This document shows positions 14,013 through 51,961 of a stretch of DNA of 64,000 bases, in pieces. Position 1 is the first letter of the stretch, and every line of letters starts with the position of its first letter. Made by a program: the position numbers and the translations under genes. The notes under the pieces are model-generated. The model had not been told where the DNA came from. It searched no databases and saw only the letters and a list, made by a program, of their open reading frames with translations. The stretch comes from Patescibacteria group bacterium. GTDB taxonomy: Bacteria; Patescibacteriota; Patescibacteriia; UBA2591; UBA6264. The DNA is taken from the NCBI GenBank assembly GCA_016784145.1, contig JADHVF010000002.1, positions 9,102 through 73,101 of the forward strand, written 5' to 3'.

Positions 14013-14695
14013 TATTTTTAAGCATCTTAACAATGCTTTTTGTTTTATTGGCCTATGTTCAGATAAAGGGAACTATTTTTTCTCCGTCTACTTGGGTTGA
14101 CCAATCAGAAGAAGCACAAGTAAAAAATATTAAAACACAAGCAATTATTAATCAAGATACTGACAGTGATGGCTTGCTTGACTTTGATGAACAATATACT
14201 TACAATACCTCAATTTATTTAGCAGACACTGATAGTGATGGAGTCACTGATAAAGATGAAATTGATATTGGTACAGACCCCTTGGACGCAATGTCGTTTT
14301 TAGGGGTAGTTAAAGAGAATCAAGATAAGAACGAAGAGGATACAATCATAGACATTTTGCCAACAGAACAAGATCAGTTAATTCAAAAAATTACAAATCA
14401 ACAAATAAGAGAGTTTTTGATTGACTCAATTGGAATAAACAAGGATGTTGTGAAAATGTTTGATGACAAAACTTTAATAAACTTGTATAATGAAGCTAAA
14501 CAAGAAACAGGTATTGATTTAGAAAACATAAATCAAGCCAAGCCATTTAGTCAAGGAGCTTCGGAACCTTCTGATTTAACTATTCCAGAACTTAGGCAAA
14601 TTTTAATAAATCAAGGAGTTGATGAGCAGATGTTAAATAAATTAGATGACAATATTTTGGAGACAATGTTTTTACAAACTCTTTTGACCCCTTAA
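13979..14695 (+). CDS. Secreted protein with thrombospondin-type-3-like Ca-binding repeats (DTDSDG)
   Basis: It starts with a signal-anchor (MSKKNTTKRQLIFLSILTMLFVLLA). Repeats DTDSDGLLDFDEQ and DTDSDGVTDKDEIDIGTDPLD follow. It overlaps the rsmA 3' end by 34 nt; an alternative start at 14030 is possible. Confidence 0.5.
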   Translation: MSKKNTTKRQLIFLSILTMLFVLLAYVQIKGTIFSPSTWVDQSEEAQVKNIKTQAIINQDTDSDGLLDFDEQYTYNTSIYLADTDSDGVTDKDEIDIGTDPLDAMSFLGVVKENQDKNEEDTIIDILPTEQDQLIQKITNQQIREFLIDSIGINKDVVKMFDDKTLINLYNEAKQETGIDLENINQAKPFSQGASEPSDLTIPELRQILINQGVDEQMLNKLDDNILETMFLQTLLTP

Positions 14696-23700: not shown

Positions 23701-24453
23701 CTTGCCCTTGATTCACAAATAATTCTACCACATGCTGATTGGGCTGGAAATGATTGTAATATAAATATTTCTTACACAATTCCAGGAACATTGCTCGCTA
23801 GATATCCTATCACTTTGGCTGGCACAATTATTCATAATGGCACCAGTATTTTAAAGCAATTATTTGCTGTGTCAGGAAATGAATATCATTGGAATGGAAG
23901 TGCTTATATTGAACAAGCTGGTACATCATGGGATAATACAGAGACGGCAACAAATACAATCAATGCTCCCAAGGTTGCTTCCATGTCAGAAATAGAGGGA
24001 GAAATTACCATTGGTGATTCTAGTGATGCTGATGTTGCACGCACGGCAGCTTATCCGGCTACATTAAAGTTTTATGCTTGGGCCAATGAAAACCAAATGC
24101 CAGTCAGGGAAATCGAAATTGACTGGCTAGGCACAGGGTCTGAGATGGGGATTGAACAACATAATGTAACAGCTAAAAATCATAAAATTACTTGCGATAA
24201 TACTAATTTCGGAGATTCATCAGATGGGTGTATTGACGAACCATATGTATTTAACCGTATTTATACTTGTGTTGGTTCTGGTAGTTTGGGGTGGAATTCT
24301 AGTTTTTGCGGGGGGCTGACTAATGCTTGTTGTTTCAAACCAAGGGTAAGGATAAAAGATAATTGGGGCTGGTGTACAAATGGAGTTTTTGATTGTTCAG
24401 ACACACAAGGGTGGGTTGATTATAACGGAAAAATAGTAATATACGCTCAGTAA
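14710..24453 (+). CDS. Giant (3247 aa) secreted Cys-rich surface protein with at least 3-4 CBM4_9-like carbohydrate-binding jelly-roll modules
   Basis: It is a single uninterrupted 9.7-kb ORF with an N-terminal signal peptide (KKIFLIILVIVFCFTLFAPRQVLA). CBM4_9-like segments lie around aa 770-930, 1130-1290 and 1590-1740 (…GNWF…YTVSVMVKA…VYVDQVNFVKG; IPNSGFELD…KYTISAKIKI…VYFDNIQLEY; …FYIDNVILEQ). A dense Cys-rich repeat region spans roughly aa 2000-2350. Confidence 0.7.
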   Translation: MNSQMKKIFLIILVIVFCFTLFAPRQVLALGDEWATIGHFFSSVGEYVWKIGEALWEESKHQFTAVVFKQGLNLYLGEMARQSAEYVATGGKGQKPAFISDPTYWSKMGDNLLGTLVNEVAQEGLGVKSLCDPIDPTIRFNMLVSVDTKYKEQQFKENEMDICPLSRINERVKEASSKKLFEFSAGVKEGKPKKFKTDIKVAIVNDTTINKADGNFVCDKRGKLVWGMLKCECKENCTSSNCDNTCFSVDERNNFGRWVNDGAQDLLNIIDKLSNIQDEFEKIINAYECAVQDKDGNPGWCTKKLEEVEQIRKDKQAERNEKCPNQDDPEYCDKLQDEINNLVEKFLYIDKWSKNYISIDKSLRIKNVIKDLKKLIDETPDPTSGLKKGVWGLKKENKGWEIDSSKDNENYLGWWTTYPAKCAKESSDDFYASEHCPTLSALAFGNDSNEHYQDVITYSKRMNTYAKKIADWYATLEDMITETHKALEEEEDLPETDPLDEVRRVTSSEGSDIGATIKMKSDFFDKQAKAMEESKFFQNLQGRMNDVSTNISGITKTPSIYIDESTRTAIKEGSATYKQYTGAALADAFNIFSSTLMKKLMERIFEEGFNPTVEADRTKPFLDKGEDEPPVVPDLEDIRDDFSDLKSAPMRKGGKMSIYDEFAVCLDDPSYELPTNCLIDSNMIEAIEGKMTIGEALDENLLNPGASVGSPGDTSSLFSYANLKKLRRYRIFPLGMEIAAEKIYNQTMGDQEYKLRSIVNGFNVENSIGTCSTIDLNGSFETGESVPGNWFLNDSDGTGTRESVDNEYYHGSFSYKINSTHTANAYYGIGHEPYDIEPNTQYTVSVMVKAEAINTGSFNLSLHCHSDSGGNFNYTTDAGDTSISSASSSWEQLYRTFTTHNDATDCTMLLIFNNGGTGTVYVDQVNFVKGNNIPNDYSWESASPFCHLVDPDWVLKASTYQCDLMGYSAIPLKNSNQRQETCVDLKDCIHEDQDGNCDTWAYCTREKNVWQFNGTACDKQYASCETYVRLSDKKQAFYVSNTIDFETCTENDNGCNWYCSVWDNDIGSDGKWACVEPGSSSYPDGKSDYSQYDDDNAIFFNLKAEDCKIEEQGCNEYIKLGENINLIPNSGFELDKNADDIADGWIEKWEGDEVLTEDAAFDGLFGYEFVHSNGDDMGDYTGAWQRVSVLPGQKYTISAKIKIITPVTGTGSTATVNYYWDEDGDNYDIGNKGETIIILDYLDEWQEHSQTVVAPDNMNYVWIAPIMYGNGKVYFDNIQLEYGALSSAYKEYGSGVKEYFKTIPKQRQWVEDGNGNWDWEWKTCSVYDEADNLDCDGYAQQCDAKDIGCEIYTNISNNVSFSAVKRGEDECAPECVGYETFRQIPTNFDINVDWKSFIPSTAQGCYVPGCEEFTNLDTLNQGGEGTEYYSYLRQCVKTDEQARAIIDSNSDEIMPPDSDTCGYFYTWIGSETSGFQLKKYYLKIDTDNGPEKVSTSPPSSWGNCWNEDHAATNPYCKQFYNEAGQIYYRLYKNTITCSEECYPFRRSINQAIYMAMPSQGEMCSSQNNGCKEYKGPLAGDINSVFSDDFTAGTGQWTTGDLSSETDNFSGYSLKNNGAGELKRSVAGLTQKDKIYFVSFWIKTASSDPIEVYFTSTDRIEQNISLVNEWQNMRFGPFYFSTTPSNDEKLNIFATSDFYIDNVILEQIDDNIYLINDSWSTQGSCDIDYQGNYSQGYMIGCAKYVDTNNDEHYFKQFSKMCPEQAVGCAGYINTQNYSYPFEWQFNQAGADNDEITILADKTEYYVVEKENYCHENNKGCERLGLPEIEDDGSISMWSDVFIKNNPDNYKSKSMVLCDVDGVGCEAYSDNYYFKDPIKQAKLCEYKTKTINGNNQSGWFKKDTDQACYYENTGPYIIDDLTYGIYFPGQENYDNYVGICPKKQVGCTEFVDPGWGGGTKNLINNSDFANEDVGYDDDNHPDGWFDSFNNNPSWQVEVVDQVSTGICGVGSNENNVCYSNTACESWTCDLFGTECFGTGPCEGSNSYCSHDNSFCTDDSGCNTTTSTGTCTNVLVCGGNASFECSTGADCSSGDNSCNIPSDTPTEWACEYDNSACDPNNNQCPTVNDSCYYDDCYYTGTACNSNSDCDGNISQSCDASTFVATGHCKFAVEESCISDDDCVGKGSQECVFGTCSQGYNNCYNDSDNFSFVQSCTGGTTGCYGGDACTCPVNSVCIRDFGSCDPFGTDTCATDVPCQRVGTCNTNSNIECFEGGDNRCTYDYGNVCGFDVCILNGEYNGYCDTSSPSPCESTTNNFCDAQTGTCTQVQDSSCNFSHSDSVSVELPSGMINAYHVYTNSPVSTEAGFIGDIGSPTGGEFSYNGPAFYSIYAFVRKGTVKFGDLSKPDEEIVSIDSTESNDQWIKKSVFVSYPSSTRVYFEPDVNNEVDAYVTGLVLSPSSFAEYYYIDNNKLDKATSVSLKKGNILLQNSSDINMDGEINSYYNSFATYQKSSEQTPPGALVDAISCSPEPVIDCEEEINQSTDYCKYCLPNNQLGNDTNLILKVDRDRICGEWLTCISSNQEWDANLGAYRDVCQFMGRCNQLISSGEATECVRFVEPEEVVLTEDVYKNRDISFSGMDYSGHSLHNVYPLEKLFLTGTDTDGYELTHKDKDGIEDGIDGNDSTLDKTCRLFPEKDSPFKNWEKEDKNVLYQGVNSCNDNSSSGDYSDCQCSYLKVKYGGMNLYYNYADSTFGTAPSKACISGNNKGGTCASDTDCDSIAGSCVNRGEGQKVVGLRDYCIELDDTKEGAGDLGACVTWWPGAGMGDPDVFNQVSSAGYEGETEYFCIDASDRWEYRGEIYEETRYEDGYGCANNPRPSSSNCDSNYTLSETKGENWDDDQWCGWQGSHSQFWRYVHCTRNGNGDSGWFSDNNGSAITYPVLDYGSTPVPEEVVEHRCNKIIAIPAGNDAKAFTNVIYNESAVGGINHGDGCEFYGNLGSLALDSQIILPHADWAGNDCNINISYTIPGTLLARYPITLAGTIIHNGTSILKQLFAVSGNEYHWNGSAYIEQAGTSWDNTETATNTINAPKVASMSEIEGEITIGDSSDADVARTAAYPATLKFYAWANENQMPVREIEIDWLGTGSEMGIEQHNVTAKNHKITCDNTNFGDSSDGCIDEPYVFNRIYTCVGSGSLGWNSSFCGGLTNACCFKPRVRIKDNWGWCTNGVFDCSDTQGWVDYNGKIVIYAQ

Positions 24454-24536
24454 ACAAGGGCAGGCCCCTTTTAAATGGGTCTGACCTTTTAGCATAATTC
24501 AAACCATTTTTAGTTAATTGTATTTGTGTTTATTTA

Positions 24537-27500
24537 ATGTTAAATAGATTAAAAAAAATTAATTTTTCTCTTAAAAAATTAATACCAATAAACAGCATTG
24601 GTGTGAAAAGATTTTTATTATTATTTGTTTTTGTTGGTATTGCTATTTTTGTTCCTAAAATAGTATTTGCTTTTAGTATTATAGATAGCATAATTGCTCC
24701 TCCCTTAATGGCTTTGATTAATTTTTTGGGAAGATTAACTTCGTTTTTTATTTGGCTCTTAGTTCAAGTGGCTCAGTATAATGATTTTATAAATTCACCA
24801 GCCGTATCAAAAGGGTGGATTTTAATGAGAGACATATTTAATATGTTTTTTGTTATTATCTTGTTAGTAATTGCTTTTGCGACGGTTCTTAAAATAGAAA
24901 CATATTCATACAAGCGATTAATGCCAGTATTTATTGTTTCAGCTGTTTTGATTAATTTTTCCAAGTTGATTTGCGGAGTGATAATTGATATTTCTCAGGT
25001 TTTAATGCTTACATTTATATCTGCTATTCAGTCAGCTGCTACAGCTGATTTTGTTGAAATTTTTGGGTTGACTAAAATGTTGGAATTAAGAGATAACATA
25101 GAATCAGGGGTGGTTATTTCGGGAGGAGAAATGTTTGGGGCTTTGCTTTTAGGACTTGTTATGGTTTTGGTTGCTCTTGGAGTTATAATGACAATGACAC
25201 TTTTGTTAGTAGCCAGGATTGTTATGATTTGGTTTTATGTCCTGCTTTCGCCAATGGCTTTTATGGCAACTATTTTACCGGGGACAAAAAGCTATGCTAG
25301 TCAATGGTGGACTGATTTTATAAAACAAGTAATCATTGGCCCTGTTTTGGCTTTTTTTCTATGGATATCTTTTTCAGTTGTCTCGACAGGGGGGTCTTCT
25401 GGAATGATTGATTCATCTAGCGGGAATTCAGCTACCATAGGCGTAACCGGAGAGCCGAGTTTTATATTTAACTTTTTAATTGGCATTGCGATGTTGATCG
25501 GCTCTTTAATGATGGCTCAAAAAATGGGAGTAGCTGGTGGAAAAATGGTTGGGGGAGCAGTTAGCAAAATGAAAGGCATGGCCATTGGCAAAGCAAAAGG
25601 AGTAGCCAAGAGAGCAGCCAAGAGAGTAGGAGCCCCTTTAAAGAAAGTTGGCAAGGGCTTGGCAGGAGCAGCAGTTAAAGCACCTCTTAGGGGATTAAAG
25701 GCTGGAGTAAAATTTGGGGGCAAAAAATTACAAAAAACAGGAAAAGTCGGAGAATGGGTTGGTAAGGGAATTGAAAAGACAGCAACTCCGATTGAATCAA
25801 TTAGACAACTAAAAGGTAGTGCAGTTCAAGGATTGCAAAAAAGAAAACAAAGTCGTTTAGAAAGACTTAGAAAAGGGAAAGGAACGATAATGGATAAAGC
25901 AGCCCAGGCATTAAGTGAAGAATATGATAAATCAGGAGGGAGAGACACAACAATTAACCAGGAAATTAGGAGGGATAAACTTGAAAAAAGACAAAAACAA
26001 GCTCAATCAAAACATGATGATGATGTAATTGTAGGAGCAGAAAACGACGAAGCATATGCTCTTGTGGCAGCAGAAAGAGGATTATTAAAAACAACCAAAG
26101 TTGAAAAATTACCGACTAAAGACAATAAAAGATTGGAAGAATTAAAACAAGGTGATGCCACAGACACTTTAACCACAGAGGAGCAAGAAGAGTTTGAAGA
26201 ATTAACAACCAAGAATGAGGATTTAAAGAAAAAAGCTAAAACAACAACCAAGAACAATGAACGAGTTGAGCGCACGGTGGCTAATGCTAGAAACAAATTT
26301 GCATCAGATTCTATTATAGGGAAGTCCTTTGATGACCATTTAAAAAAGAAAGGTGATGCTAATTTAGCTTATAATACATTTTATAAAGATAATCCAGGGC
26401 AGTTAACTAAAGATATTAAATCAGGAGATTTTGGGGTAGCCCAATTAATGAAATTAGATAAAGATACAACAAAGGACCTTGGTTCAAGTGATGTGGGGCA
26501 GAATATTTTATCTGAAATAAAAACAGAGGATTTTAATAAATTTGCTAAATCTACGGACATAAAAGTTCAGGATAAATTTGAAGCACTTTTTGGAGACATA
26601 AAGCCGGAAAAAATTAAAGAAAAAGATAAACAAAAACTGATTGATGCTGGTAGGGCTGATTTAGCTTTTGTGGATGACCCAGAAACAGAAGAACAAAAAA
26701 GTAATAACAAAAACATGGTTAAAAAATTGGAAATGGAAGAGAATAGAGATGTTTTACTTAAACAGTCAGACATGGCTTTAAAGAATGATGTGGTGGCTGA
26801 GTTGGTCGTAAAGACAGCAAATCTAGAAGATATTCAAAAAATGTCACCGAAAAGAAAGGAAAATCTTTTGGAAGAAAAAATGCCTGCTATAATGAAGAAT
26901 TATCAAAAAAAGGAAAGCGATCAAGGATTAGAAGACCCTGAAAAAGAAGATTATAAGAAGATTCAAACAACTTATATTAAAGCCAAGAAAGGAAAAGATA
27001 TTAGCAAGGTCTTTGAAGACAAGGATGGCAAGTTTGATGAAAGCAAGTGTGCTAATCTTTCTAAATGGATAAAAAATGGTACAATTAAATCAGGTGATTT
27101 GGGAGATTTAGATATTGATAGGGAAAATATTAATGAAAAGCAAAAAGATGAAGTATTGAGTCAAATATCTCAAGGAATGACAGCTAGCGATGTTATGAAA
27201 TTATATGGTAAAAATCAAGGATTGGCACAAAAATTAACCAATAAAATTCAAGCACAAGCTTCAACAGGAGATAAAGAAGCACTAGAAAAGATAGAAGTTC
27301 TCTCCAACTCAGAATTTTTTCAAAGACAAATATCTACAACAACTAAACAAAAAACAAAAGAAACAAAAATACAGGGCAAGAAAGTAGATAAATCAAGTGT
27401 CCGAAAGATTGAAACAATAACTACTCAAGAAATTGAAGAAAGAAAAGAAATGATAACCAAAAAATATAATAACCTTGAAGAACCAGTAGATGCTATAATG

Positions 27501-28127
27501 ATAGTAGAAGACCATACTAAACAAGGTGGCGAATTAGCGAAAACAATTAGTTCTGCTTCTTTAGAATCATTTAAAAATTTACAAGCATCAAAGAATGCAG
27601 GGAAAGAAATGATTGCTAAAATGGACAAAAATGAATTAAATGAGTTTGCTCAGGAGCTAATCAAGCATAAAGGCGGACAAGAAAAACTGGCAAAGATTTT
27701 TAATTTAAGAGATATGTTCCCTGTCGGCCAAGACTTGTCTGAAAAAGGAAAGATGACAGTTAATAACAAAGAATATGATTTATCTAATTCAAGGGAAAGA
27801 GAAGAGGTTAATCAACTCAATGCTCAAAAAGCAGTTGATGTTATAAAACAAGCACCAACCATTGCTGTTAATTTAGCAGGAGTAGAAGGCGCAAAAGGAT
27901 TAACAGATTTGCAAGGAGTGAGCAAAGAAATAGCAGAAGCGATAATACAAGCCATTGCCAACCAAGCAAACAAAGGGGATGACCAAGCTCAACAACTCAT
28001 TCCCAACCTTAAAAATACTGCATGGATAAAAGAAATTTTAGAAAAACAAAAGAAAGAAGCAGGACCACTAGAAGAAGGGCAATCAGAGACAGAAGGGACA
28101 ACAGAAGGGACAACAGAAACAGAATAA
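24537..28127 (+). CDS. VirB6/TrbL-like polytopic membrane protein with an ~850-aa K/E/D-rich low-complexity tail
   Basis: The N-terminal ~330 aa contain about 6-7 hydrophobic helices with TrbL/VirB6-like organisation. Next comes a Gly/Lys-rich linker (GKAKGVAKRAAKRVGAPLKK). The tail is long, charged and probably coiled/disordered. It lies in the same operon as the VirB4 ATPase. Confidence 0.5.
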   Translation: MLNRLKKINFSLKKLIPINSIGVKRFLLLFVFVGIAIFVPKIVFAFSIIDSIIAPPLMALINFLGRLTSFFIWLLVQVAQYNDFINSPAVSKGWILMRDIFNMFFVIILLVIAFATVLKIETYSYKRLMPVFIVSAVLINFSKLICGVIIDISQVLMLTFISAIQSAATADFVEIFGLTKMLELRDNIESGVVISGGEMFGALLLGLVMVLVALGVIMTMTLLLVARIVMIWFYVLLSPMAFMATILPGTKSYASQWWTDFIKQVIIGPVLAFFLWISFSVVSTGGSSGMIDSSSGNSATIGVTGEPSFIFNFLIGIAMLIGSLMMAQKMGVAGGKMVGGAVSKMKGMAIGKAKGVAKRAAKRVGAPLKKVGKGLAGAAVKAPLRGLKAGVKFGGKKLQKTGKVGEWVGKGIEKTATPIESIRQLKGSAVQGLQKRKQSRLERLRKGKGTIMDKAAQALSEEYDKSGGRDTTINQEIRRDKLEKRQKQAQSKHDDDVIVGAENDEAYALVAAERGLLKTTKVEKLPTKDNKRLEELKQGDATDTLTTEEQEEFEELTTKNEDLKKKAKTTTKNNERVERTVANARNKFASDSIIGKSFDDHLKKKGDANLAYNTFYKDNPGQLTKDIKSGDFGVAQLMKLDKDTTKDLGSSDVGQNILSEIKTEDFNKFAKSTDIKVQDKFEALFGDIKPEKIKEKDKQKLIDAGRADLAFVDDPETEEQKSNNKNMVKKLEMEENRDVLLKQSDMALKNDVVAELVVKTANLEDIQKMSPKRKENLLEEKMPAIMKNYQKKESDQGLEDPEKEDYKKIQTTYIKAKKGKDISKVFEDKDGKFDESKCANLSKWIKNGTIKSGDLGDLDIDRENINEKQKDEVLSQISQGMTASDVMKLYGKNQGLAQKLTNKIQAQASTGDKEALEKIEVLSNSEFFQRQISTTTKQKTKETKIQGKKVDKSSVRKIETITTQEIEERKEMITKKYNNLEEPVDAIMIVEDHTKQGGELAKTISSASLESFKNLQASKNAGKEMIAKMDKNELNEFAQELIKHKGGQEKLAKIFNLRDMFPVGQDLSEKGKMTVNNKEYDLSNSREREEVNQLNAQKAVDVIKQAPTIAVNLAGVEGAKGLTDLQGVSKEIAEAIIQAIANQANKGDDQAQQLIPNLKNTAWIKEILEKQKKEAGPLEEGQSETEGTTEGTTETE

Positions 28128-28168
28128 TTAATAATTATTGATTGATATAATAAAAACAAATTAGAAAC

Positions 28169-29455
28169 ATGGAATTTAAGGATTTACCAGATTGGGTAAA
28201 AGACAATTTATTAAGTGACCAAACATTGGCAGTTAATAAAAAGATTATAAAAGACTTTGAATTAACAAATGAACAAAAGTCAATTGTTTTTGATGCCTTG
28301 CGAAAAATTATATTAAAACAATCAAATATAGATGAATTAACAGTCGTTTTGCAGGGAATGGGAGTTGGCATAGATAAAGCAAACAAACTTATTATAGAAG
28401 TTATTAAGCAAAGATTACTGCCTTTAAAAGAATATTTATTAATTGATTTTCGTCCATCTATTACTAAATTAGGGGGAAAGATTCTTAAAGAACAATCAAG
28501 CCAGTTTGTGCCAGATAAAGAAATTTCTTTAGAAAAAACAGCTCAACAGATTATAGATGAACTTAAAATATCTTTTGAAAGAGATGTTATGGCAACTAGG
28601 TTTAGTAATATTGTTGTTTCATTTTTAAAAGAAGTGAGAAGCGAGATTGAAACAAAAATTGTTTTAAAAAGAGACCCAAAGATAGGAGGAATGGGGATTG
28701 AGGACGAGATGGTTGATAAAATAATACAGGCCTTGAAAAAGAAGCATCAATCTCCTAAAATAATCAAAAATACAAAGGTTAAAGATTTGACAGAAGAATT
28801 AAAATTAGCTCAAGAACCAATTGATATTCCTGGCTCAATTCCAAAACCTCAGCCAAAACCTGACTTAGGGGCAAGGCCTCTAAGTAAAGACATGAGTCAA
28901 GAAAAGCAAGTATTAACACCAAAACCTTATCCTGTTTCTCAACCAAAACCTGACTTAGGGGCAAGGCCTCTAAGTAAAGACATGAGTCAAGAAAAGCAAG
29001 TATTAACACCAAAACCTTATCCTGTTTCTCAGCCAAAACCTGACTTAGGGGCAAGGCCTCTAAGTAAACCGTTAGTACATCAAACACCAAGGCCGGTTAA
29101 GGATTTGTCTGGGCCAGTTGAAATTAGGTCAAGAACATTGAGTCCTATTGATGAATTAAGAACATTTTCTTTGGTTGATTGGCGACGATTAGGGAAAACA
29201 GCTGATGCTGTTACCAGAATCAAAGACAAAATAAATTTGTTAGAAGAAGAATCATTGCTAAAAAAGGCAGAAGGAATTAAGGCATGGAAAGAATCAACCA
29301 TTAACAAATTATATTTAAAAATAGGGGAGCAAGCGATTAATTCAGGGTCATCAATTAGGGATGTTATTTTAAGCAGGCAAAGCAATAAAGAACAAACCTT
29401 AACAGAAGAAGAGTTTAATGCTGTGGTTGAATTAAATCAATCTTTGAGATTTTAA
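28169..29455 (+). CDS. Hypothetical protein with a 3x tandem 30-aa repeat (PKPDLGARPLSKDMSQEKQVLTPKPYPVSQ)
   Basis: 428-aa ORF in the co-directional cluster. The internal 90-nt tandem repeat embeds the GC-hairpin element (see repeat 28851-29070). Confidence 0.5.
   Translation: MEFKDLPDWVKDNLLSDQTLAVNKKIIKDFELTNEQKSIVFDALRKIILKQSNIDELTVVLQGMGVGIDKANKLIIEVIKQRLLPLKEYLLIDFRPSITKLGGKILKEQSSQFVPDKEISLEKTAQQIIDELKISFERDVMATRFSNIVVSFLKEVRSEIETKIVLKRDPKIGGMGIEDEMVDKIIQALKKKHQSPKIIKNTKVKDLTEELKLAQEPIDIPGSIPKPQPKPDLGARPLSKDMSQEKQVLTPKPYPVSQPKPDLGARPLSKDMSQEKQVLTPKPYPVSQPKPDLGARPLSKPLVHQTPRPVKDLSGPVEIRSRTLSPIDELRTFSLVDWRRLGKTADAVTRIKDKINLLEEESLLKKAEGIKAWKESTINKLYLKIGEQAINSGSSIRDVILSRQSNKEQTLTEEEFNAVVELNQSLRF
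28851..29070. repeat. 2.4 copies of a 90-nt in-frame tandem repeat, each containing ACTTAGGGGCAAGGCCTCTAAGT (reverse complement of the intergenic hairpin element at 9165-9383)
   Basis: Exact 23-nt match read from the sequence at 28864, 28954 and 29044. The period is 90 nt, a multiple of 3. Confidence 0.85.
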
Positions 29456-29466
29456 TAAATATATAT

Positions 29467-29895
29467 ATGCAATTTTTAGTTCCACAATTTATTGATGTTG
29501 AACCAAAAATCATTGGGCCAATTTCGCCTCGTCAGTTCGTTGTTTTCATTGTTACTTTATTATTATGTGTGTTAGCATATAAGTTAGCTGATTTTGCTTT
29601 ATTCACAATTGAAGCAATTATTTTTGTGGCAGTAGGGGGGTCATTTATGTTTCTTAAGGTTAATGGCCAACCATTGCATTATTTTTTACTTAATATTGGG
29701 AATAGTTTCAAAAAGCCAAACTTAAGGGTGTGGAAAAAACAAACCAAGATGCCAGTTGAAATAAAAGTAAAAGAAAAGAAAAAAGACAAAGGACCAATTG
29801 TTGTCAGAAAGTCACTTCCTTCAACTCGGCTTTCACAAATTTCATTAATGGTTGATACAGGAGGCAAATACAATGAAGAGGATTTTGAAGAATAA
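29467..29895 (+). CDS. PrgI/VirB3-like small membrane protein (type IV secretion component)
   Basis: 142 aa. MQFLVPQFIDVEPKIIGPISPRQFVVF… is followed by two hydrophobic helices, typical of the PrgI family. It sits immediately upstream of the VirB4-family ATPase, as VirB3 does relative to VirB4. Confidence 0.5.
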   Translation: MQFLVPQFIDVEPKIIGPISPRQFVVFIVTLLLCVLAYKLADFALFTIEAIIFVAVGGSFMFLKVNGQPLHYFLLNIGNSFKKPNLRVWKKQTKMPVEIKVKEKKKDKGPIVVRKSLPSTRLSQISLMVDTGGKYNEEDFEE

Positions 29896-29908
29896 ATAAT
29901 AAAATAAT

Positions 29909-30574
29909 ATGGCAACTAAAAGCAATGTATCTTCTACTCAAAAATATTTAGACATTTCTGAAATTAGAAATGATTGTGTGATTTTGAAAAATGGATCATT
30001 ATGTTCTGTTATTTTGTCATCTTCAATTAATTTTGGGCTTAAGTCATCTGACGAGCAAAAAGCAGTGATTCAAAATTATATATCATTTTTAAACACAATA
30101 GATTTCCCAATGCAAATAATTATCCAATCAAGACCTTTTAATATCAAACCATATCTAGCTGAATTGGAAAGTCTTAGAAAAAAACACACAAATGAATTGT
30201 TAAAAATTCAAATGGCAGATTATGCTAGTTTTGTGAAAGAATTGGTTGTTTTAGGAGAGATAATGAGTAGAAAGTTTTATATTGTTCTTTTGTATAATCC
30301 AGCTGGTGATAAAAAAATTGGATTTTTTGCTAGGATTTCAGAGCTTTTTAGTGCAGCTAGAACAGTTAAAATGAATAGAATAAAAATTGAAAAATATAAA
30401 GAAAAGCTTTTCAGAAGAGTTGATATTGTTACCTCGGCTCTTTCTTCTATGGGAGTAAGTGGAGTGCCGCTTGATACACAAAGTTTAATAGAACTTTTTT
30501 ATAACTCATATAATCCAGCTGAATCTGAAATGCAAAAAATTACAGAAGTCAAAAAATTAAGATTAGAAGATTAA
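29909..30574 (+). CDS. Hypothetical protein; candidate detached N-terminal domain of the VirB4/TraC ATPase
   Basis: 221 aa. …YLDISEIRNDCVILKNGSLCSVI… resembles the start of VirB4 N-terminal domains. It ends 13 nt before the ATPase ORF. Confidence 0.45.
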   Translation: MATKSNVSSTQKYLDISEIRNDCVILKNGSLCSVILSSSINFGLKSSDEQKAVIQNYISFLNTIDFPMQIIIQSRPFNIKPYLAELESLRKKHTNELLKIQMADYASFVKELVVLGEIMSRKFYIVLLYNPAGDKKIGFFARISELFSAARTVKMNRIKIEKYKEKLFRRVDIVTSALSSMGVSGVPLDTQSLIELFYNSYNPAESEMQKITEVKKLRLED

Positions 30575-30587
30575 AATAAATTTTATT

Positions 30588-32504
30588 ATGGTTTTTGACC
30601 CATCAATTATTAAAACAAAAGAAGAATTAGCAGAGCAACCAAAACAGTTGTCTAAAAAAGAACAGAAGCAAGTTGATATTAAAAAAGAGATAGAATTAGA
30701 TGATGTCATAAAGACAGAGCAAGCATATCGCAAAGGACTTGTCTCTGTTCGTGATTTGATTGCTCCTTCTGCTTTGAGAGCAACTCCAGCCTATCTACAG
30801 TTGGGAAACAAATATCTCAGAACACTTTTTGTAGTTGCCTTCCCAAGATATATTACAGTTGGTTGGTTTTCTCCTTTAATTGGCTTTGATTCTTCTTTGG
30901 ATGTATCAATGTTTTTTTATCCGGTTGAAACAAAAGTGATTTTAAAACAATTACAAAAAAAAGTTGGTAATATAGAAGCAGAGCTTGGAGCAGAATACGA
31001 GAAAGGTATGCCAAGAGACCCTTTAAAGGAAACAGCTTTGAGAGATATTGAGAATTTAAGAAATCAATTAACTACTGGTACAGAGCATTTTTTTCAATTT
31101 TCTTTATATGTAACTATTTATGCTGACACGGAAAAAGAGTTGGATGAGACAACAGAAAAAGTAGAGAACATTTTTGCATCAAAACTAGTTTATACTAGAA
31201 GAGCTTTTTATCAAGCAGAACAAGGATTTGATTCTACCTTGCCTTTAGCAAATGACAAAATAATGGTTTCAATAAATATTAATACCTCTCCTTGCGCTTC
31301 TAGTTTCCCTTTTATTTCAGCTGATTTAACGTCAGACAATGGCATTCTCTACGGAATTAATAGACATAACAATAGTTTGATTCTTTTTGATAGATTTTCA
31401 ATGCCTAATGCTAATTTTATGGTTTTTGCTACCTCTGGCTCGGGTAAAAGTTATTTTGCTAAATTAGAAGTTTTGCGGTCATTAATGATGGGCACGGATG
31501 TTATTATTATTGACCCTGAAAAAGAGTACAAGCATTTATCTGACGCTGTAGGGGGAACGTTTATTAACATCTCGCTTGCTTCTGAAGCCAAGATTAATCC
31601 ATTTGATTTGCCCAGGTCAAGTTCAAAAGATGTAAAAACAAGCGATCTAATTAGAAGTGGAGTTATTTCAGTAAAAGGATTATTAAAGCTAATGATTGGA
31701 CAGCCAATAGGAAAGAAAGATAATGCTTTTACGCCAAAAGAGGACTCCTTGCTTGATAGTGCACTTTTAGAAACTTATGCTAAAAAAGACATTATACCAG
31801 GATGTGATTTAACAAAAGTTCAAATGCCAACCTTAAGCGATTTTCAGCAAATTTTAGAAGGAATGGAGGGAGTAGATGATTTAGTTGAAAGATTAAAAAA
31901 ATATACAGCCGGAACATTTTCAGGATTTTTAAATCGTCCTACTAATGTTGAAATGGATAACCAGTTTATAGCTTTTTCAGTTAGAGATCTTGAGGACGAA
32001 TTAAGACCAATGGCTATTTATAGTATTGTGAATTATATTTGGAATACTGTGCGAGCAAAATTAAAGAAAAGAATTTTATTGGTTGACGAGGCTTGGTGGT
32101 TAATGCAAAATGAAGAGTCTGCAAAATTTATATTTGCTCTTGTTAAACGTTGCCGAAAATATTATATGGGAGTAACAACAATTACACAGGATGTAAATGA
32201 CTTTCTTAACTCTCCTTATGGCAGGGCAATTGTCACTAACTCAGCCATGCAATTATTATTAAAACAGTCGCCAGCTTCGGTTGACAGGGTATCAAAGATA
32301 TTTATGCTGACAGAAGGAGAAAAATTTTTATTATTAGAATGTGGGCTGGGTGAAGGCATATTCTTTGCTGGACCCAAACACGCGGCCATAAAAGTAGTTG
32401 CTTCTTATTCAGAAGACCAATTAATAACATCAGACCCCAGTCAGTTATTAGAAATTGAAGAATCTAAAAAAGAGTTTGCTAAAGAATCTAAAAAAGAAGA
32501 ATAA
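30588..32504 (+). CDS. VirB4/TraC/TrbE-family type IV secretion ATPase
   Basis: Walker A is FATSGSGKSYFAKLE. Walker B is RILLVDEAWWLM. A downstream TTITQ motif is present. 638 aa; if the preceding ORF is included, the size matches VirB4. Confidence 0.8.
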   Translation: MVFDPSIIKTKEELAEQPKQLSKKEQKQVDIKKEIELDDVIKTEQAYRKGLVSVRDLIAPSALRATPAYLQLGNKYLRTLFVVAFPRYITVGWFSPLIGFDSSLDVSMFFYPVETKVILKQLQKKVGNIEAELGAEYEKGMPRDPLKETALRDIENLRNQLTTGTEHFFQFSLYVTIYADTEKELDETTEKVENIFASKLVYTRRAFYQAEQGFDSTLPLANDKIMVSININTSPCASSFPFISADLTSDNGILYGINRHNNSLILFDRFSMPNANFMVFATSGSGKSYFAKLEVLRSLMMGTDVIIIDPEKEYKHLSDAVGGTFINISLASEAKINPFDLPRSSSKDVKTSDLIRSGVISVKGLLKLMIGQPIGKKDNAFTPKEDSLLDSALLETYAKKDIIPGCDLTKVQMPTLSDFQQILEGMEGVDDLVERLKKYTAGTFSGFLNRPTNVEMDNQFIAFSVRDLEDELRPMAIYSIVNYIWNTVRAKLKKRILLVDEAWWLMQNEESAKFIFALVKRCRKYYMGVTTITQDVNDFLNSPYGRAIVTNSAMQLLLKQSPASVDRVSKIFMLTEGEKFLLLECGLGEGIFFAGPKHAAIKVVASYSEDQLITSDPSQLLEIEESKKEFAKESKKEE

Positions 32505-32512
32505 AATTATTT

Positions 32513-33052
32513 ATGAAAAAAAATATTATTGTAATTATTTTAATAATCATTTTAATTATAGTTGGAATTATTTTTATGTTTGCCAGCCAAAATGAACAAG
32601 ATATTCCTACTGATGACAAAATATTAAAGCAACAAGATATTGAGAAGCAAGAGCAAGAAAAAGCAAAGGCAGCTCAAATTAAAATTATTAAAACAGATTT
32701 AAAAAATCAAGCCAGAGCATTTGTTCAATACATGGGTACTTATTCAAAAGAAAATGCTTATCAAAACAGAGAAGAGTTATTAAATCAAATGACTGATAGT
32801 TTTATAAAAAAATCATTAGAACAAATTGAACAAAACATAAATCAACCAGATTTTGCTTCTTTGTTGACTAGTGTTTTGTCAGTTGAAGCAAGAAGACATA
32901 ATAATGAAGTGGCTGTTTATTCTGTTAATGTTAAACAAACAAGAGTTTTTGCTAGTGTGGTTGAGGATGAGATTGAGTATAAAACAGGTGAAATTCTTTG
33001 GCTAAAACAAGCTGACAAATGGAAAGTTAATAGTATTGATTTTGATTTATAG
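32513..33052 (+). CDS. Bitopic membrane protein (N-terminal TM plus ~150-aa extracytoplasmic domain); possible VirB8-like component
   Basis: The hydrophobic N-terminus is IIVIILIIILIIVGIIFMF. It is followed by a soluble domain with mixed alpha/beta character. Its position is within the T4SS-like operon. Confidence 0.35.
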   Translation: MKKNIIVIILIIILIIVGIIFMFASQNEQDIPTDDKILKQQDIEKQEQEKAKAAQIKIIKTDLKNQARAFVQYMGTYSKENAYQNREELLNQMTDSFIKKSLEQIEQNINQPDFASLLTSVLSVEARRHNNEVAVYSVNVKQTRVFASVVEDEIEYKTGEILWLKQADKWKVNSIDFDL

Positions 33053-33068
33053 CTTTTAATCATTTTTT

Positions 33069-33509
33069 ATGGGAGAGCAAACAATACAGCAAAGAGAATT
33101 GGAGAGAAAAAGAGAACTTTTATTACAACAGCAAAGACAGCGAATAATTCAATCAAAAAAAAAGAAAGATTCTCAGAATACTAAACAAACAGAAGAAAAA
33201 ATCAAAAAATTAAGAAGAGTTTATAGGATGTCAAATGCAAGTTCAGCAGCGAGTGTATTTGGAATTATTATCACCTTTTTAATAATGAATGCTCAGTTAA
33301 TTTTTGGAAATATACTTGGATTCAAGAAAATTCCTAAATTAACTTTACCAGAAATAGCAATTCTTATTTTAATAGATTTTTTAGTACTTATAATTACTTT
33401 GTTTATTGTTTTGCTTTTAGTCCTTGCAGCCATGCCATTAATTGGACCAGTGGCAGCAGTAAATATATTTGGAACAGAAATTGTAAGTTTTATTCAATCA
33501 ATGTTTTGA
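33069..33509 (+). CDS. Small membrane protein (charged N-terminus, 2-3 TM helices)
   Basis: 146 aa. The N-terminus is Q/R/K-rich and the C-terminal half is hydrophobic. It is operonic with the T4SS-like genes. Confidence 0.4.
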   Translation: MGEQTIQQRELERKRELLLQQQRQRIIQSKKKKDSQNTKQTEEKIKKLRRVYRMSNASSAASVFGIIITFLIMNAQLIFGNILGFKKIPKLTLPEIAILILIDFLVLIITLFIVLLLVLAAMPLIGPVAAVNIFGTEIVSFIQSMF

Positions 33510-33516
33510 TTTATAA

Positions 33517-34920
33517 ATGAAAATAAAAAATTTAAATAAATTATTTAGTGTTTTAATAGTAGTGTTTTTGCTGACTTGTTTTTTAAGTATGCCGGTTTTT
33601 GCTCAAGAAAATGGAAACGAATACGAATCTCCAGCTTTTTATCCACAAGTTCAAATCCCTAATCCTAATTCAGATTTTATTCCAGGACAGGCAACTATAA
33701 TCAGTGGTAGCACTTTTGCAACATATATTATTGCAATTTACAATTGGGGATTAAGAGCTGTTTTAACCTTGGCTATTATTGTGATTATTGTTTCAGGATT
33801 TCAATGGATGGTTTCTACTGGCAATGCTAGTAAAATCGGTCAGGCAAAAGAAAGAATTATTTCTGCTTTGATTGGAGTAATGATTGCCCTTGGGTCATTT
33901 TTTCTGCTTAATTTTATTAATCCTTCTTTAACAAGATTTAGAGATCTAAATGTTGCACCAGTAGTGGATTTAGCAGAGATTAGTAATAAAAAATGTGGAG
34001 AAAATGGTATTTGTATTTATGGAGAGATTAGAGAAAATGAGGATAAAAGCATAGGGCAGTGCGAGTGCAAAACAGAAATGAGGGTGCAGTATAAATACAA
34101 AGATGAAGATGGGGATGAAGATGAAGAGGAGGAAAATTTTCAAGCTAAAAAATATTATGATTGTGGAAAAATGTATTATGAACCCAGAACACATATTGGG
34201 GCTGATTGCGGAGAGAATAACCCAAAACAAACTTGTATGTTAAAGGTAGGGTTTGAAACAGGTGGCAATAATAATTATTATCCGTATGGAAACAATGAAT
34301 GGGCTATTAATTTTTTCACTTCTCCTGAAGATTTTGCTATGTGGCCAGATGATACCAGGGATTGTATAGATGCAAGTCAACCACCCCCACCTGATTGCCC
34401 TGATGAAACAGCAATATATGAGATAGATGATTTCCGTTGTTTTAATATTACATCAAGCCCAGATCCGTATTGCGAAGATCATGTAATTTCTTTAACAAGT
34501 CAAATACAAGATCTTGTGTTGAAAGAATCAGAAATTACTAAAATAGAAATATATTTAGCTGTTGATGACGCATATGAGCAAGGTTGCCCCATGAATAATA
34601 TGGACGAAAAAGACTGGAAAACACTAAAGAATAGCAATCATTGGACTGATTATTTAGGAAATAATCATAATGATGTTGGCACAGAATTTAGTTGCATAAA
34701 TCCAGGAGACGACAGTGGTAATGATGCCGTAATAAGAGTAAGAGCTTGTTTTGGAATTGATGATGATTATTGCAAGAATACATCTAATCAGGATTATAAC
34801 CCAAATCCTAATGATATTTTTAAAGATTTTAAAATTATAATAGCAGATGACAGTAGTGGGGGAGCAACTTCTTACTATGGTCAAATAAAAGTTTATACAA
34901 ATCGTGTTTGTTCACAATAA
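33517..34920 (+). CDS. VirB2/TrbC-like pilin domain fused to a ~330-aa Cys-rich C-terminal extension
   Basis: It begins with a signal peptide (LIVVFLLTCFLSMPVFA). Two hydrophobic helices separated by a short loop follow (…IIAIYNWGLRAVLTLAIIVIIVSGFQWMVSTGNASKIGQAKERIISALIGVMIALGSFFLLNFINP), the classic T4SS pilin topology. The C-terminal half is rich in Cys, Asp and Asn. Confidence 0.5.
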   Translation: MKIKNLNKLFSVLIVVFLLTCFLSMPVFAQENGNEYESPAFYPQVQIPNPNSDFIPGQATIISGSTFATYIIAIYNWGLRAVLTLAIIVIIVSGFQWMVSTGNASKIGQAKERIISALIGVMIALGSFFLLNFINPSLTRFRDLNVAPVVDLAEISNKKCGENGICIYGEIRENEDKSIGQCECKTEMRVQYKYKDEDGDEDEEEENFQAKKYYDCGKMYYEPRTHIGADCGENNPKQTCMLKVGFETGGNNNYYPYGNNEWAINFFTSPEDFAMWPDDTRDCIDASQPPPPDCPDETAIYEIDDFRCFNITSSPDPYCEDHVISLTSQIQDLVLKESEITKIEIYLAVDDAYEQGCPMNNMDEKDWKTLKNSNHWTDYLGNNHNDVGTEFSCINPGDDSGNDAVIRVRACFGIDDDYCKNTSNQDYNPNPNDIFKDFKIIIADDSSGGATSYYGQIKVYTNRVCSQ

Positions 34921-34926
34921 ATAAAT

Positions 34927-36219
34927 ATGTCAGAAAAAACCAAGAAAATATTATTAGTAATTTTATTCATTTTAGTCGTAATTGGTATGGCTTGGCTTTT
35001 ATATTCTGTGTTTTTTAAAAAACCAGTTGTATTGGTTGCCCCAGATATTGTTGAAGAACTACCTGAACAAGTAAGGTTGCCTGTTACTCAAGATGATTGG
35101 GAAGCAATGACAGTAGAACAAAGAGTTACTAATGGTTTGCCAAAATTTGAGTGGCTAGATAAAGAGATTTCTAAAATTCCAGCTATTCCTGTTACTAGGA
35201 AGGTTGCTCCTAAAATTGATGAAATAGCTAAAGGGGGGAAAACATGGGTTTCCCCGGTTTCAATTGATAAAGTAAAATGGCCCACTTTAGCAAAGGATGG
35301 GTTAAATAGTATTTATTATAATCCTGAGACAGGTCAATTTTTTGAAGTTGATATTTATGGGAACAAAACATTAATGACAGACCAGGTCTTTTATAATGTT
35401 GATAATGTTAATTGGGCCCCCACTAAAGAAAGGGCTATTATTGAATATCCAGACGGTTTTAAGGTAATGTATGATTTTAAAAAGAAAAAACAATATACTT
35501 TGCCAAAAAATTGGGAAGATTTTTCATGGGATATTGGGGCTGACAAAATTGCTTTCAAATCAATTAGTAAATATGCAGAAAATACTTGGTTAGCTATTGC
35601 CAGGCCAGATGGAAGCAAGGCAAAGCCAATTGAACACATGGGAGAAAACGCAGATAAAGTTACTGTTTCTTGGTCTCCTAATAATCAAGTAGTGGCTTTT
35701 TCATCTACTGGTGACCCAAGAGGAATGTGGGAACAAGAAATGTTATTAATTGGTCAGCATGGCGAAAATTTTAAATCATTAGTTATTGACGGCAGGAGAT
35801 TTGAACCAAAATGGGCGCCAAATGGAAGCAAAATTGTTTATAGTGTTTACAGTTCAGAGTTTGATTACAAGCCAAGGTTATATGTTGTTGATGCCCAAGG
35901 AGATGATATAGGTAGAAATAAAATAAGCACAGGACTAGAAACATGGGCTCATAAATGCACTTTTAATTCTAATGGGGCTGAACTTTATTGTGCTGTGCCA
36001 AAAACATTGCCAGATGGAGCTGGTATGATTGAAGAATTAGGAGAAGGATCTAGAGATAATTTTTACAAAATAAATGTTTCTACCGGGGAGGTTTCTTTTT
36101 TAGCAGAAGGGGCTATGGGGGGCTATGATGTCAAGGATATTTATGTGTCTAATGATGATAAATATCTTTATTTTGTTGACGAAAATAGTAGTAGGTTAAG
36201 ATATATTAAGTTAAAATAA
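34927..36219 (+). CDS. Membrane-anchored TolB-like (PD40) beta-propeller protein
   Basis: An N-terminal TM helix is followed by repeated W-SPDG-like blades (VSWSPNNQVVAFSS; PKWAPNGSKIVYSV; IEYPDGFKVMYD). Confidence 0.6.
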   Translation: MSEKTKKILLVILFILVVIGMAWLLYSVFFKKPVVLVAPDIVEELPEQVRLPVTQDDWEAMTVEQRVTNGLPKFEWLDKEISKIPAIPVTRKVAPKIDEIAKGGKTWVSPVSIDKVKWPTLAKDGLNSIYYNPETGQFFEVDIYGNKTLMTDQVFYNVDNVNWAPTKERAIIEYPDGFKVMYDFKKKKQYTLPKNWEDFSWDIGADKIAFKSISKYAENTWLAIARPDGSKAKPIEHMGENADKVTVSWSPNNQVVAFSSTGDPRGMWEQEMLLIGQHGENFKSLVIDGRRFEPKWAPNGSKIVYSVYSSEFDYKPRLYVVDAQGDDIGRNKISTGLETWAHKCTFNSNGAELYCAVPKTLPDGAGMIEELGEGSRDNFYKINVSTGEVSFLAEGAMGGYDVKDIYVSNDDKYLYFVDENSSRLRYIKLK

Positions 36220-36243: not shown

Positions 36244-36276
36244 AAAAAAGCCCTGTTAAGAAAACAGAGGTTTTTT
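36244..36276. terminator. Bidirectional rho-independent terminator between convergent genes
   Basis: AAAAAA-GCCCTGTT-aagaa-AACAGAGG-TTTTTT. The stem is 7 bp with a 1-nt bulge. An A-tract lies 5' and a T-tract 3'. Confidence 0.6.
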
Positions 36277-36313
36277 ATAAAATAATTATTAATCATTAAT
36301 TCGGGAGATGCAT

Positions 36314-45166: not shown

Positions 45167-45553
45167 TGGTGGAGATGGCGGGTAATTCTCCCGCGTCCGC
45201 AAACAATTAAACAAAAATATCTACCTTTATAGTTTGGTTATTTTTCTCGATAAAAAAATAGAAACCAAACAAAATTTTTTTTACCAAAGCCCTATTTTAT
45301 TTAAATTAATTTTATTGGGCATTAAAATTAATCTGTCCTGCAAAAATGATACCAATATTTGCTAGCAGGAGTCGTAAACATCAGCAGTGATTGTCAATTT
45401 TATGCAACCACAGGGCTTAAAGCAGGAACAGATAAAATCTGTTTTGCTTTTACCAATAAATTTTTGGCATTTATTTGTTTTTAGAGAATTAACGCATCTC
45501 TTAAAACGAAAGGCTGTTTTTGAGTAATAATCTCGTCAATTATTAACATCCCC
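45167..45553 (-). ncRNA. ssrA: tmRNA (ssrA), ~387 nt
   Basis: The minus strand starts GGGGATGTTAATAATTGACGAG (tRNA-like 5' half, G3:U70 pair). It ends …GGACGCGGGAGAATTACCCGCCATCTCCACCA (T-arm GCGGG/CCCGC, acceptor CATCTCC, discriminator A, CCA), closely matching canonical tmRNA termini. smpB lies 4 kb away. Confidence 0.7.
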
Positions 45554-51932: not shown

Positions 51933-51961
51933 AAAAGCATAATTGATTTAATTTTTGTAGA

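Follow-up and report, generated by a model that had tools for sequence, protein, structure and literature searches.

The 64-kb window analysed here (64,000 nucleotides (nt) of contig JADHVF010000002.1, assembly GCA_016784145.1, from a Patescibacteria group bacterium) contains, between positions 24537 and 36219, a cluster of nine intact open reading frames (ORFs), all on the + strand and separated by gaps of 6-41 nt, five of which are canonical parts of a type IV secretion system (T4SS). A first-pass annotation of the same DNA had counted ten genes: the co-directional, tightly packed arrangement and its coordinates proved exact, but the number of ORFs is nine, because the gaps are too small for another gene. 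The evidence set out below identifies the locus, with high confidence, as a chromosomal and vertically inherited T4SS of the Patescibacteria type, derived from the MPF_FATA machinery of monoderm bacteria and arranged as in relatives presumed to belong to the class ABY1. The genes, with lengths in amino acids (aa) and transmembrane segments abbreviated as TM, and the site that closes the unit are as follows.

24537-28127, + strand: extended VirB6/TrbL-like polytopic membrane protein, 1196 aa, as predicted from a fold match to R388 TrwI and transitive homology to Pfam TrbL
28169-29455, + strand: p428, conserved soluble protein with three 30-aa Pro-rich repeats, 428 aa, recognised as a blastp family
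29467-29895, + strand: PrgI-family (VirB3-like) small membrane protein, 142 aa (Pfam PrgI, E 8.5e-6)
29909-30574, + strand: TrsD-like protein, the VirB4 N-terminal domain as a separate ORF, 221 aa (NCBIfam TrsD/TraD, 8.1e-9)
30588-32504, + strand: VirB4-family ATPase, C-terminal two-thirds, 638 aa (NCBIfam conju_CD1110, 2.9e-104; Pfam P-loop_TraG, 9.4e-29)
32513-33052, + strand: p179, VirB8-like bitopic protein, 179 aa, with an N-terminal TM helix, a long helix and an NTF2-like domain in the predicted structure
33069-33509, + strand: p146, small membrane protein having 2-3 TM segments behind a charged N-terminus, 146 aa (hydrophobic segments aa 54-73 and 88-136)
33517-34920, + strand: long VirB2-like protein with signal peptide, two-TM T4SS-pilin module and extension, 467 aa (Pfam T4SS_pilin 4.1e-4, TrbC 1e-3)
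34927-36219, + strand: membrane-anchored PD40 (TolB-like) beta-propeller, 430 aa (Pfam PD40, 27.3 bits against a cutoff of 20.9)
36250-36277, no strand assigned: bidirectional terminator hairpin flanked by an A-run and a U-run, separating the final T4SS gene from the convergent recG

The hairpin, with fold z-scores of -5.1 (+ strand) and -6.9 (- strand) and not equalled in stability by any of 200 shuffled sequences, marks the 3' end of the T4SS unit; a terminator-like site was also called on the - strand. A promoter scan, giving 89 sites where 79 were expected, was not informative.

Relatives were sought by scanning one genome per species, and the best 80 genome matches were used. These matches were all metagenome-assembled genomes (MAGs) of Patescibacteria, with VirB4 identities of 46-74%, in keeping with the candidate phyla radiation (CPR) type of organism first proposed; the informative names among them, at VirB4 identities of 60-74%, were Magasanik-, Kerfeld-, Uhr-, Falkow-, Jackson- and Buchananbacteria, which we take to be members of the GTDB class ABY1, together with three outliers from WWE3 and Curtissbacteria. 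A VirB4 identical to that of the window was also present on several ENA and Logan metagenome contigs. The locus is syntenic across ~80 species-level genomes: in the related loci the conserved order starts with a large surface protein and continues with an extended VirB6-like gene (880-1290 aa), p428, PrgI, TrsD, VirB4 and the VirB8-like gene, followed in the 3' part by one or more long pilin-like genes with a PD40 propeller, recG being nearby in 21 loci. Many third-party annotation (TPA) MAGs that carry this Patescibacteria locus (e.g. L006, L011, L013) are titled "uncultured Gammaproteobacteria bacterium", which looks like a placeholder or mislabel.

The 638-aa ATPase scored 349.9 bits on the conju_CD1110 model, above its cutoff of 325, and retains intact Walker A (ATSGSGKS, aa 281-288, with GSGKS at 284-288) and Walker B (LLVDEAW, aa 497-503) motifs, bearing out the VirB4/TraC-family identity first proposed. 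With 27% identity to PrgJ of pCF10 (E 2.5e-42), it is a VirB4 of the Gram-positive or monoderm type (MPF_FATA, CD1110); the CedB model gave 51 bits against a cutoff of 700, within the P-loop region only. The preceding 221-aa ORF, for which a precomputed Pfam assignment to PF26593 (TraC-like) is available, aligned to the VirB4_plasma model at 98-265, where the 638-aa ORF takes over at 266-891; since the two ORFs thereby cover contiguous stretches of a single model, VirB4 is encoded here in two pieces. The TrsD-like ORF was present in 79 of 85 related loci, typically with ~220-240 aa.

Upstream of this pair, the 142-aa protein scored 26.7 bits on Pfam PrgI, marginally short of the gathering threshold (GA) of 27, while its positional orthologs matched PF12666 in 45 of 46 cases (best 4.6e-11), and alignment of their profile to PrgI of pCF10 by hhalign gave an E of 3.5e-4 centred on the motif DVEdKIIGPIT.RQF. 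The protein contains a hydrophobic hairpin at aa 15-49. PrgI, TrsD and VirB4 follow one another in that order with 13-nt gaps, both smaller genes adjoining virB4 in this run. The PrgI/VirB3 identity suggested by the first-pass annotation therefore stood, but not the placement of that gene directly before the ATPase, between which the 221-aa TrsD-like ORF intervenes.

The 1196-aa protein combines an N-terminal helical membrane domain of ~330 aa, with ~7 hydrophobic segments in the first 320 residues, and a further ~850 residues, in which a K/E/D-rich tail of ~700 aa comes after a basic segment rich in G, A and K (aa 341-480). Direct scans with Pfam and NCBIfam gave no VirB6/TrbL match, a profile of 42 orthologs found no PDB sequence, and hhalign of the same profile to PrgH of pCF10 was not significant; the assignment consequently rests on two other lines. 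The fold matches R388 TrwI, and the homolog P0079, at 28.9 bits, exceeds the Pfam TrbL threshold of 25.9 over exactly the stretch aligned to residues 198-280 of the window protein. When the ortholog profile was compared with 26 transfer proteins from pCF10 and pSK41, its best match was TrsL, a member of the TrbL family. The fold prediction and this transitive homology agree with the VirB6/TrbL-like identity proposed at the outset, and on both grounds the protein can be designated an "extended VirB6". The position of the basic segment, immediately after the last VirB6 helix, suggests by the positive-inside rule that the tail is cytoplasmic.

For p179, searches with a profile of its orthologs against PDB sequences returned only PrgL (E 0.64), and Pfam scans of the individual orthologs gave no matches; as these results were too slight, recourse was had to structure prediction, which returned one TM helix and a confident VirB8 fold. 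Since it is bitopic, is predicted to adopt an NTF2-like VirB8 fold in its C-terminal part and belongs to a T4SS cluster, p179 can on that model be placed in the VirB8 family. A bitopic VirB8-like gene of ~200 aa occupies position +1 after virB4 in 64 of 70 loci, and its near-universal presence seems not to have been described previously. Homologs of the next gene, p146, were confined to the two closest relatives (L006 and L074), which makes it lineage-specific. Both small proteins had initially been called bitopic, one of them possibly VirB8-like: this holds for p179, whereas p146 shows roughly three hydrophobic segments. At position +2, 32 of 63 related loci have instead a ComF-like zinc-finger phosphoribosyltransferase directly following the VirB8-like gene (e.g. 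L007:12767-13579, L028:12551-13258); a ComF motif was absent throughout the 64-kb window, where p146 takes that position. The +2 gene was rejected as a conserved part of the T4SS, the ComF of the relatives being unrelated to p146.

The 467-aa protein contains its pilin module at aa ~66-136, followed by a C-terminal extension of 331 aa with 16 Cys. Its T4SS_pilin score fell below GA, while its homolog P0083 scored above (27.3 against 26.6), and of 27 related long pilin-like ORFs 26 matched PF18895; these results, together with the TrbC match, substantiate the pilin of VirB2/TrbC topology that had been proposed. The module aligns colinearly, at 27-29% identity, with short pilins of the same genome, G94, W97, M98, S100, G102 and K106 being invariant. 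Given the basic loop that joins the two pilin helices and the 16 Cys, the extension is presumably extracellular. It gave no blastp match to any other pilin-like extension or homolog, and as the homolog search for the whole protein returned only 6 proteins, the alignment was too shallow for modelling of the Cys-rich part.

Extended pilins are the rule in this group: the pilin-like genes adjoining virB4 in related loci were long in 27 of 27 cases (294-586 aa), with one architecture, shared by nearly all, of signal peptide or N-terminal TM, two-TM pilin module and C-terminal extension. The extensions are hypervariable, typically of ~110-420 aa with 7-28 Cys (one is of 54 aa), and some carry peptidoglycan hydrolase domains, namely Peptidase_M15/VanY in three, SLT in two and NlpC/P60 in P0087. 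Loci with pilin-module fusions include L010:13462-16858, L049:13398-16673 and L016:12784-14484. Fusion of pilin modules to hypervariable Cys-rich or cell-wall-hydrolase ectodomains seems to be undescribed.

The short pilins lie in a distant array of the same genome, located on an overlapping contig for which the window coordinate equals 11386 minus the L089 coordinate.

L089:14541-17353, no strand assigned: short pilin array plus a 304-aa protein, ~3.2-6 kb beyond window position 1 and ~28-31 kb from the VirB6-like gene

The array comprises four tandem short pilin genes (113, ~124, 128 and 132 aa) with strong PF18895 matches, and the adjacent 304-aa protein has a central pilin module with Cys-rich flanks. 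The major pilin of the system is probably encoded in this array, outside the window.

Two further components are characteristic of the related loci. The soluble protein p428, in which neither a TM segment nor a Walker A motif was found, had blastp homologs in 71 of 85 loci, invariably placed after the VirB6-like gene and before PrgI, and is a family-specific component of these loci. Its family is large (2306 representative clusters at E<=1e-3) and seems to be undescribed; the conserved C-terminal domain (~110 aa) matched nothing in Pfam or PDB, nor any of the 26 pCF10/pSK41 transfer proteins. The Pro-rich repeats are encoded by a 90-bp tandem repeat (28848-29068, 2.5 copies, 98% identical), and an allele of 398 aa, one repeat shorter, was present on a contig from another sample (L001), so that the repeat copy number is polymorphic within the population. 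The last gene of the cluster encodes a PD40 propeller with an N-terminal TM at aa 1-32, full-length orthologs of which (31-64% identity) adjoin pilin-like genes in 21 related loci. The TolB-like beta-propeller originally noted here was borne out as a PD40 protein; TolB proper was rejected, as the NCBIfam TolB model (TIGR02800) gave 2.4e-9 and 36.6 bits, where 343 are required, and matched the propeller blades only, in a protein that is membrane-anchored. No Tol-Pal domains were seen in Pfam scans of the window ORFs.

Pfam scans of every window ORF of at least 120 aa revealed no domain of a VirD4/TraG coupling protein, VirB11, VirB9/10, relaxase or integrase, in agreement with what had been reported for the window; the 10 kb beyond either window end, taken from metagenome contigs of the same organism, likewise contained no relaxase, type IV coupling protein (T4CP), VirB11 or integrase domain. 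The absence of a coupling protein thus holds for ~84 kb around the locus, and the adjacent relaxase or VirD4 gene that the first-pass annotation had named as the finding that would overturn its view was looked for over that whole distance, with none found. A Walker A search of the unknown ORFs gave none, and tblastn with PcfC (VirD4) and PcfG (relaxase) of pCF10, a test of low sensitivity, gave no matches in the window or the 85 loci.

The flanking genes are of housekeeping type, as had been stated: leuS and rsmA/ksgA lie upstream, the convergent recG lies downstream, and tRNA genes follow 2.7 kb downstream of the locus. Between ksgA and the VirB6-like gene are two further genes.

13979-14695, + strand: g238, membrane-anchored protein with a TSP3 (calcium-binding) repeat, 238 aa (Pfam TSP3_bac 3.2e-5; TM aa 7-35)
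14710-24453, + strand: giant Cys-rich surface protein with a CBM_4_9 domain, 3247 aa (Pfam CBM_4_9 8.7e-11; N-terminal signal or anchor; 143 Cys)

A hairpin with a U-run (24456-24491, z -2.1) separates the giant gene from the VirB6-like gene. In relatives, the VirB6-like gene is commonly preceded by a large ORF, of ~800-1470 aa where contig ends allow (25 loci mapped), and some of these are homologous to the 3247-aa protein, which is probably, if tentatively, a locus-associated candidate adhesin. A higher guanine-plus-cytosine (GC) content at 16-26 kb coincides with this Cys/Gly-rich gene; a GC island was rejected, since the amino-acid bias of the giant gene explains the composition. The g238 gene overlaps the 3' end of ksgA by 34 nt, and in the relative L069 a g238 homolog (7016-7792) lies directly between ksgA and the p428-like, PrgI, TrsD and VirB4 genes, with neither a giant gene nor VirB6 between it and the p428-like gene. 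Tentatively, g238 possibly belongs to the locus, the left border of which, given this direct adjacency in L069, may be 13979 instead of 24537. Further upstream, at 9379-10602 on the - strand, is a 407-aa LysM-LysM-CHAP cell-wall hydrolase, the CHAP domain of which matches that of PrgK, the VirB1-like hydrolase of pCF10 (tblastn 9e-9); from this likeness it could be a VirB1 analog for the T4SS, or simply a housekeeping autolysin.

Systems of this kind have already been published, from Saccharibacteria (Wang 2023, PMC10633639) and across Patescibacteria (Quinonero-Coronel 2025, PMC12102498). The T4SS of Southlakia epibionticum resembles Gram-positive conjugation machines, includes pilins and has no recognisable coupling protein or relaxase, and its genes, including a pilin array, are essential for epibiotic growth (PMC10633639), while comEC is dispensable in the same organism (PMC12857230). 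In the wider survey, VirB4 was present in 2,417 of 3,035 Patescibacteria genomes, mostly as a monophyletic clade nested in MPF_FATA, with TrsD, PrgI/VirB3, VirB6 and VirB2-like genes as neighbours and relaxases almost absent; ksgA was abundant near virB4 in many classes, comF, recG and radA were common in ABY1 loci, and the phylogeny indicated vertical inheritance within classes (PMC12102498). The present locus shares with the system of Candidatus Southlakia epibionticum ML1 (SEML1_0006-0019) and with the Patescibacteria clade a chromosomal location, a VirB4 of MPF_FATA ancestry with Patescibacteria VirB4 proteins as its best matches, a separate TrsD-like ORF adjoining PrgI/VirB3, a VirB6, VirB2-like pilins and the lack of a linked relaxase or coupling protein; as in the survey, ksgA is upstream, and as in ABY1, recG is downstream.

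Compared with Southlakia, the locus has the arrangement of the presumed-ABY1 relatives, with an extended VirB6 (1196 aa), and also a PD40 propeller and a member of the p428 family. A clear VirB8-like gene directly follows virB4, whereas Southlakia has no structural homolog and the survey lists a few dozen; the in-locus pilin is the 467-aa Cys-rich fusion, the short pilin array being ~30 kb off rather than in the cluster; and no lysozyme or peptidase gene lies directly downstream. The 2025 survey is silent on pilin fusions, extended VirB6, the propeller and giant neighbours (PMC12102498).

Among the MPF_FATA plasmids, pSK41/pGO1 shows the same split and order (trsC-trsD-trsE for VirB3, TrsD and VirB4), and prgH-I-J-K-L of pCF10 a parallel order of VirB6, VirB3, VirB4 and, further on, a VirB8-like gene; hhalign linked the ortholog profiles of the present family to PrgL, PrgI and TrsL. 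Like pSK41/pGO1, pIP501 Tra and pCF10, the locus has no outer-membrane core and no VirB11. By way of contrast with those plasmids, it has no relaxase, VirD4-type protein, SSB (single-stranded DNA-binding protein) or topoisomerase genes or PrgB-type LPXTG adhesin, carries VirB2-like pilin modules, is chromosomal and vertically inherited, and has a VirB6 3-4 times longer. The prototype VirB6 of MPF_FATA is of ~300 aa, and yet this MPF_FATA-derived lineage is extended. The nearest likeness in that respect is the extended VirB6 of Rickettsiales and MPF_FA systems (700-900 aa, PMC12857230), which likewise joins a membrane core to a large hydrophilic and probably unstructured C-terminal domain; the tails are, however, unrelated in sequence, that of the present protein being K/E/D-rich after a basic G/A/K-rich segment.

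With its extended VirB6, PrgI/VirB3, split VirB4 and VirB8-like protein, the locus encodes a cytoplasmic-membrane translocon. By analogy with the architecture of R388 and pKM101, VirB4 hexamers together with the TrsD-like N-domain would dock on VirB3 and VirB8 and power assembly, while VirB6 would form a central stalk on which VirB2 subunits would polymerise into a pilus or conduit through the monoderm envelope. The variable ectodomains that a host cell encounters would be those of the long pilin-module proteins and of the giant CBM protein, and the machine, to judge from its relatives, would act at the site of contact with a host bacterium. That the locus provides a contact-dependent conduit at the epibiont-host interface rather than a means of conjugation is, by this analogy, somewhat probable, and agrees both with the first-pass view of a non-conjugative, probably core lifestyle or host-interaction system, given the housekeeping context and the lack of relaxase, T4CP and integrase, and with the published view (PMC10633639, PMC12102498). 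Identity, mechanism and function taken together, we regard this as a reasonably likely best explanation, in which adhesion, uptake or export would in each case be inferred by analogy.

As to direction, uptake of host-derived macromolecules, e.g. nucleic acids, may be tentatively proposed, and is slightly favoured over effector export, because the locus is without a linked export receptor (T4CP), relatives have comF and recG close by, and a precedent exists in ComB of Helicobacter pylori. ComB is a DNA-uptake T4SS that contains VirB2/3/4/6/8 and operates without VirD4, VirB11 or a relaxase. It has been put forward as a precedent for an importing T4SS (PMC11665869), but is a diderm system with VirB7/9/10, and its sequence affinity to the present locus is confined to generic VirB families: specific homology to ComB or to CedA/CedB was not found, the likeness being one of subunit composition only. 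A 2025 review, which calls these systems "the most exciting newcomers", speculates that the pilus is a host-uptake conduit (PMC12857230), and a 2026 preprint reports tubular structures, maybe T4SS pili, at the parasite-host interface, and uptake of host RNA (bioRxiv 10.64898/2026.06.21.733656). The lean towards import is nevertheless weak, since the window is without comF and the Southlakia T4SS is essential independently of ComEC.

Several points weigh against the reading of the locus as a Patescibacteria-type host-contact conduit, or against an importing role for it. Placement in the Patescibacteria clade draws on VirB4 best hits and family models, and the relatives sharing this arrangement are known from their genes, not from experiment. 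To our knowledge, no direct demonstration exists that monoderm T4SSs form pili, and packing into a pilus may not tolerate an ectodomain of 331 aa attached to the pilin module. The argument from comF is borrowed from relatives, there being no comF in the window. Southlakia owes its competence to type IV pili and ComEC rather than to the T4SS (PMC12857230); as the need for that T4SS is independent of ComEC, participation in classical transformation is disfavoured. Even for cultivated Saccharibacteria, function and transport direction of the T4SS are likewise open (PMC11665869). Homologs of VirD4 or T4CP are present in most Patescibacteria genomes, usually far from virB4 (PMC12102498), and a VirD4-like gene may lie elsewhere in the present genome.

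The rival that survives best is effector export, whereby proteins would be injected or released to remodel or lyse the host bacterium, with a T4CP encoded elsewhere or none at all; Wang 2023 raised the possibility that such a system may "instead export proteins" (PMC10633639), and protein-secreting T4SSs that lack a T4CP do exist, as in Bordetella Ptl and Brucella VirB. The related pilin-module proteins fused to Peptidase_M15/VanY, SLT or NlpC/P60 domains fit such a role, and ectodomains that are Cys-rich and hypervariable point to surface or secreted proteins directed at the host; the neighbouring cell-wall hydrolases and Cys-rich ectodomain proteins would be examples of candidate substrates. 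The hydrolase and Cys-rich domains have, however, Sec-type signal peptides and membrane anchors, so that a T4SS is not needed for them; no recognisable effector or secretion signal was found and there is no T4CP in cis. Export as a whole is judged rather unlikely.

An organelle for adhesion only, in which a VirB2-type fibre carries variable ectodomains and nothing is translocated, would accommodate the several pilin genes (the long one in the locus, the four short ones and the 304-aa one nearby), the adjacent giant CBM surface protein and TSP3 protein, and the lack of a substrate receptor. It is nonetheless improbable, as Patescibacteria already attach and move by type IV pili (PMC12857230, PMC11665869), and the VirB3/4/6/8 translocon, kept phylum-wide and with an extended VirB6 in related loci, is more than pilus biogenesis usually retains.

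The remaining alternative, an integrated conjugative element (ICE) or decayed remnant with its relaxase and coupling protein outside the window, could draw on the homology of VirB4, PrgI, TrsD and the VirB8-like protein to conjugation proteins of Gram-positive plasmids and ICEs, on the nearby downstream tRNA genes and on the minority of Patescibacteria that carry relaxases (PMC12102498), but was rejected as very improbable on its conserved synteny, housekeeping context and lack of an integrase: neither integrase nor relaxase nor coupling protein (VirD4/TcpA or other T4CP) occurs in ~84 kb, the locus lies between ksgA and recG and is syntenic across ~80 species-level genomes with a VirB4 divergence that tracks lineage, the nine ORFs are intact with no compositional island beyond the bias of the giant gene, and the published phylogeny is one of vertical inheritance within classes (PMC12102498).

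Few machines have been shown to be indispensable to CPR bacteria living as epibionts, and the Patescibacteria T4SS is among them. Within the reading of a host-contact conduit, the present locus is one more uncultivated example and leaves the general picture unchanged; what it adds, for the presumed-ABY1 group, is a set of parts, namely a VirB8 homolog, an extended VirB6, p428, a PD40 propeller with pilin-like genes, and pilin fusions, which offer concrete starting points for structural studies and, in cultivable relatives, for genetics, and may help to explain host specificity. The residual value lies mostly in the VirB8-like gene, p428, the long pilin fusions and the distant pilin array. A more speculative and doubtful proposition is that the VirB2 module serves as a carrier for hypervariable disulfide-rich or hydrolase ectodomains displayed or delivered by the fibre, so as to recognise and breach specific host envelopes, with the widespread p428 as a new cytoplasmic subunit replacing the coupling protein in substrate recruitment; if true, this would constitute a new architectural variant of the T4SS with a built-in host-range module.

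Two other regions of the window may be recorded. Between a glycosyltransferase gene and ileS, at 51495-53701 on the + strand, are adjacent ORFs of 145 and 579 aa with no Pfam matches, the larger having no Walker A motif. A transfer-messenger RNA (tmRNA) gene (Rfam, 84.5 bits; 45167-45553, - strand) and smpB (49792-50241, - strand) lie ~4 kb apart, flanking fusA, rpsG and rpsL, and this region is ordinary housekeeping context.

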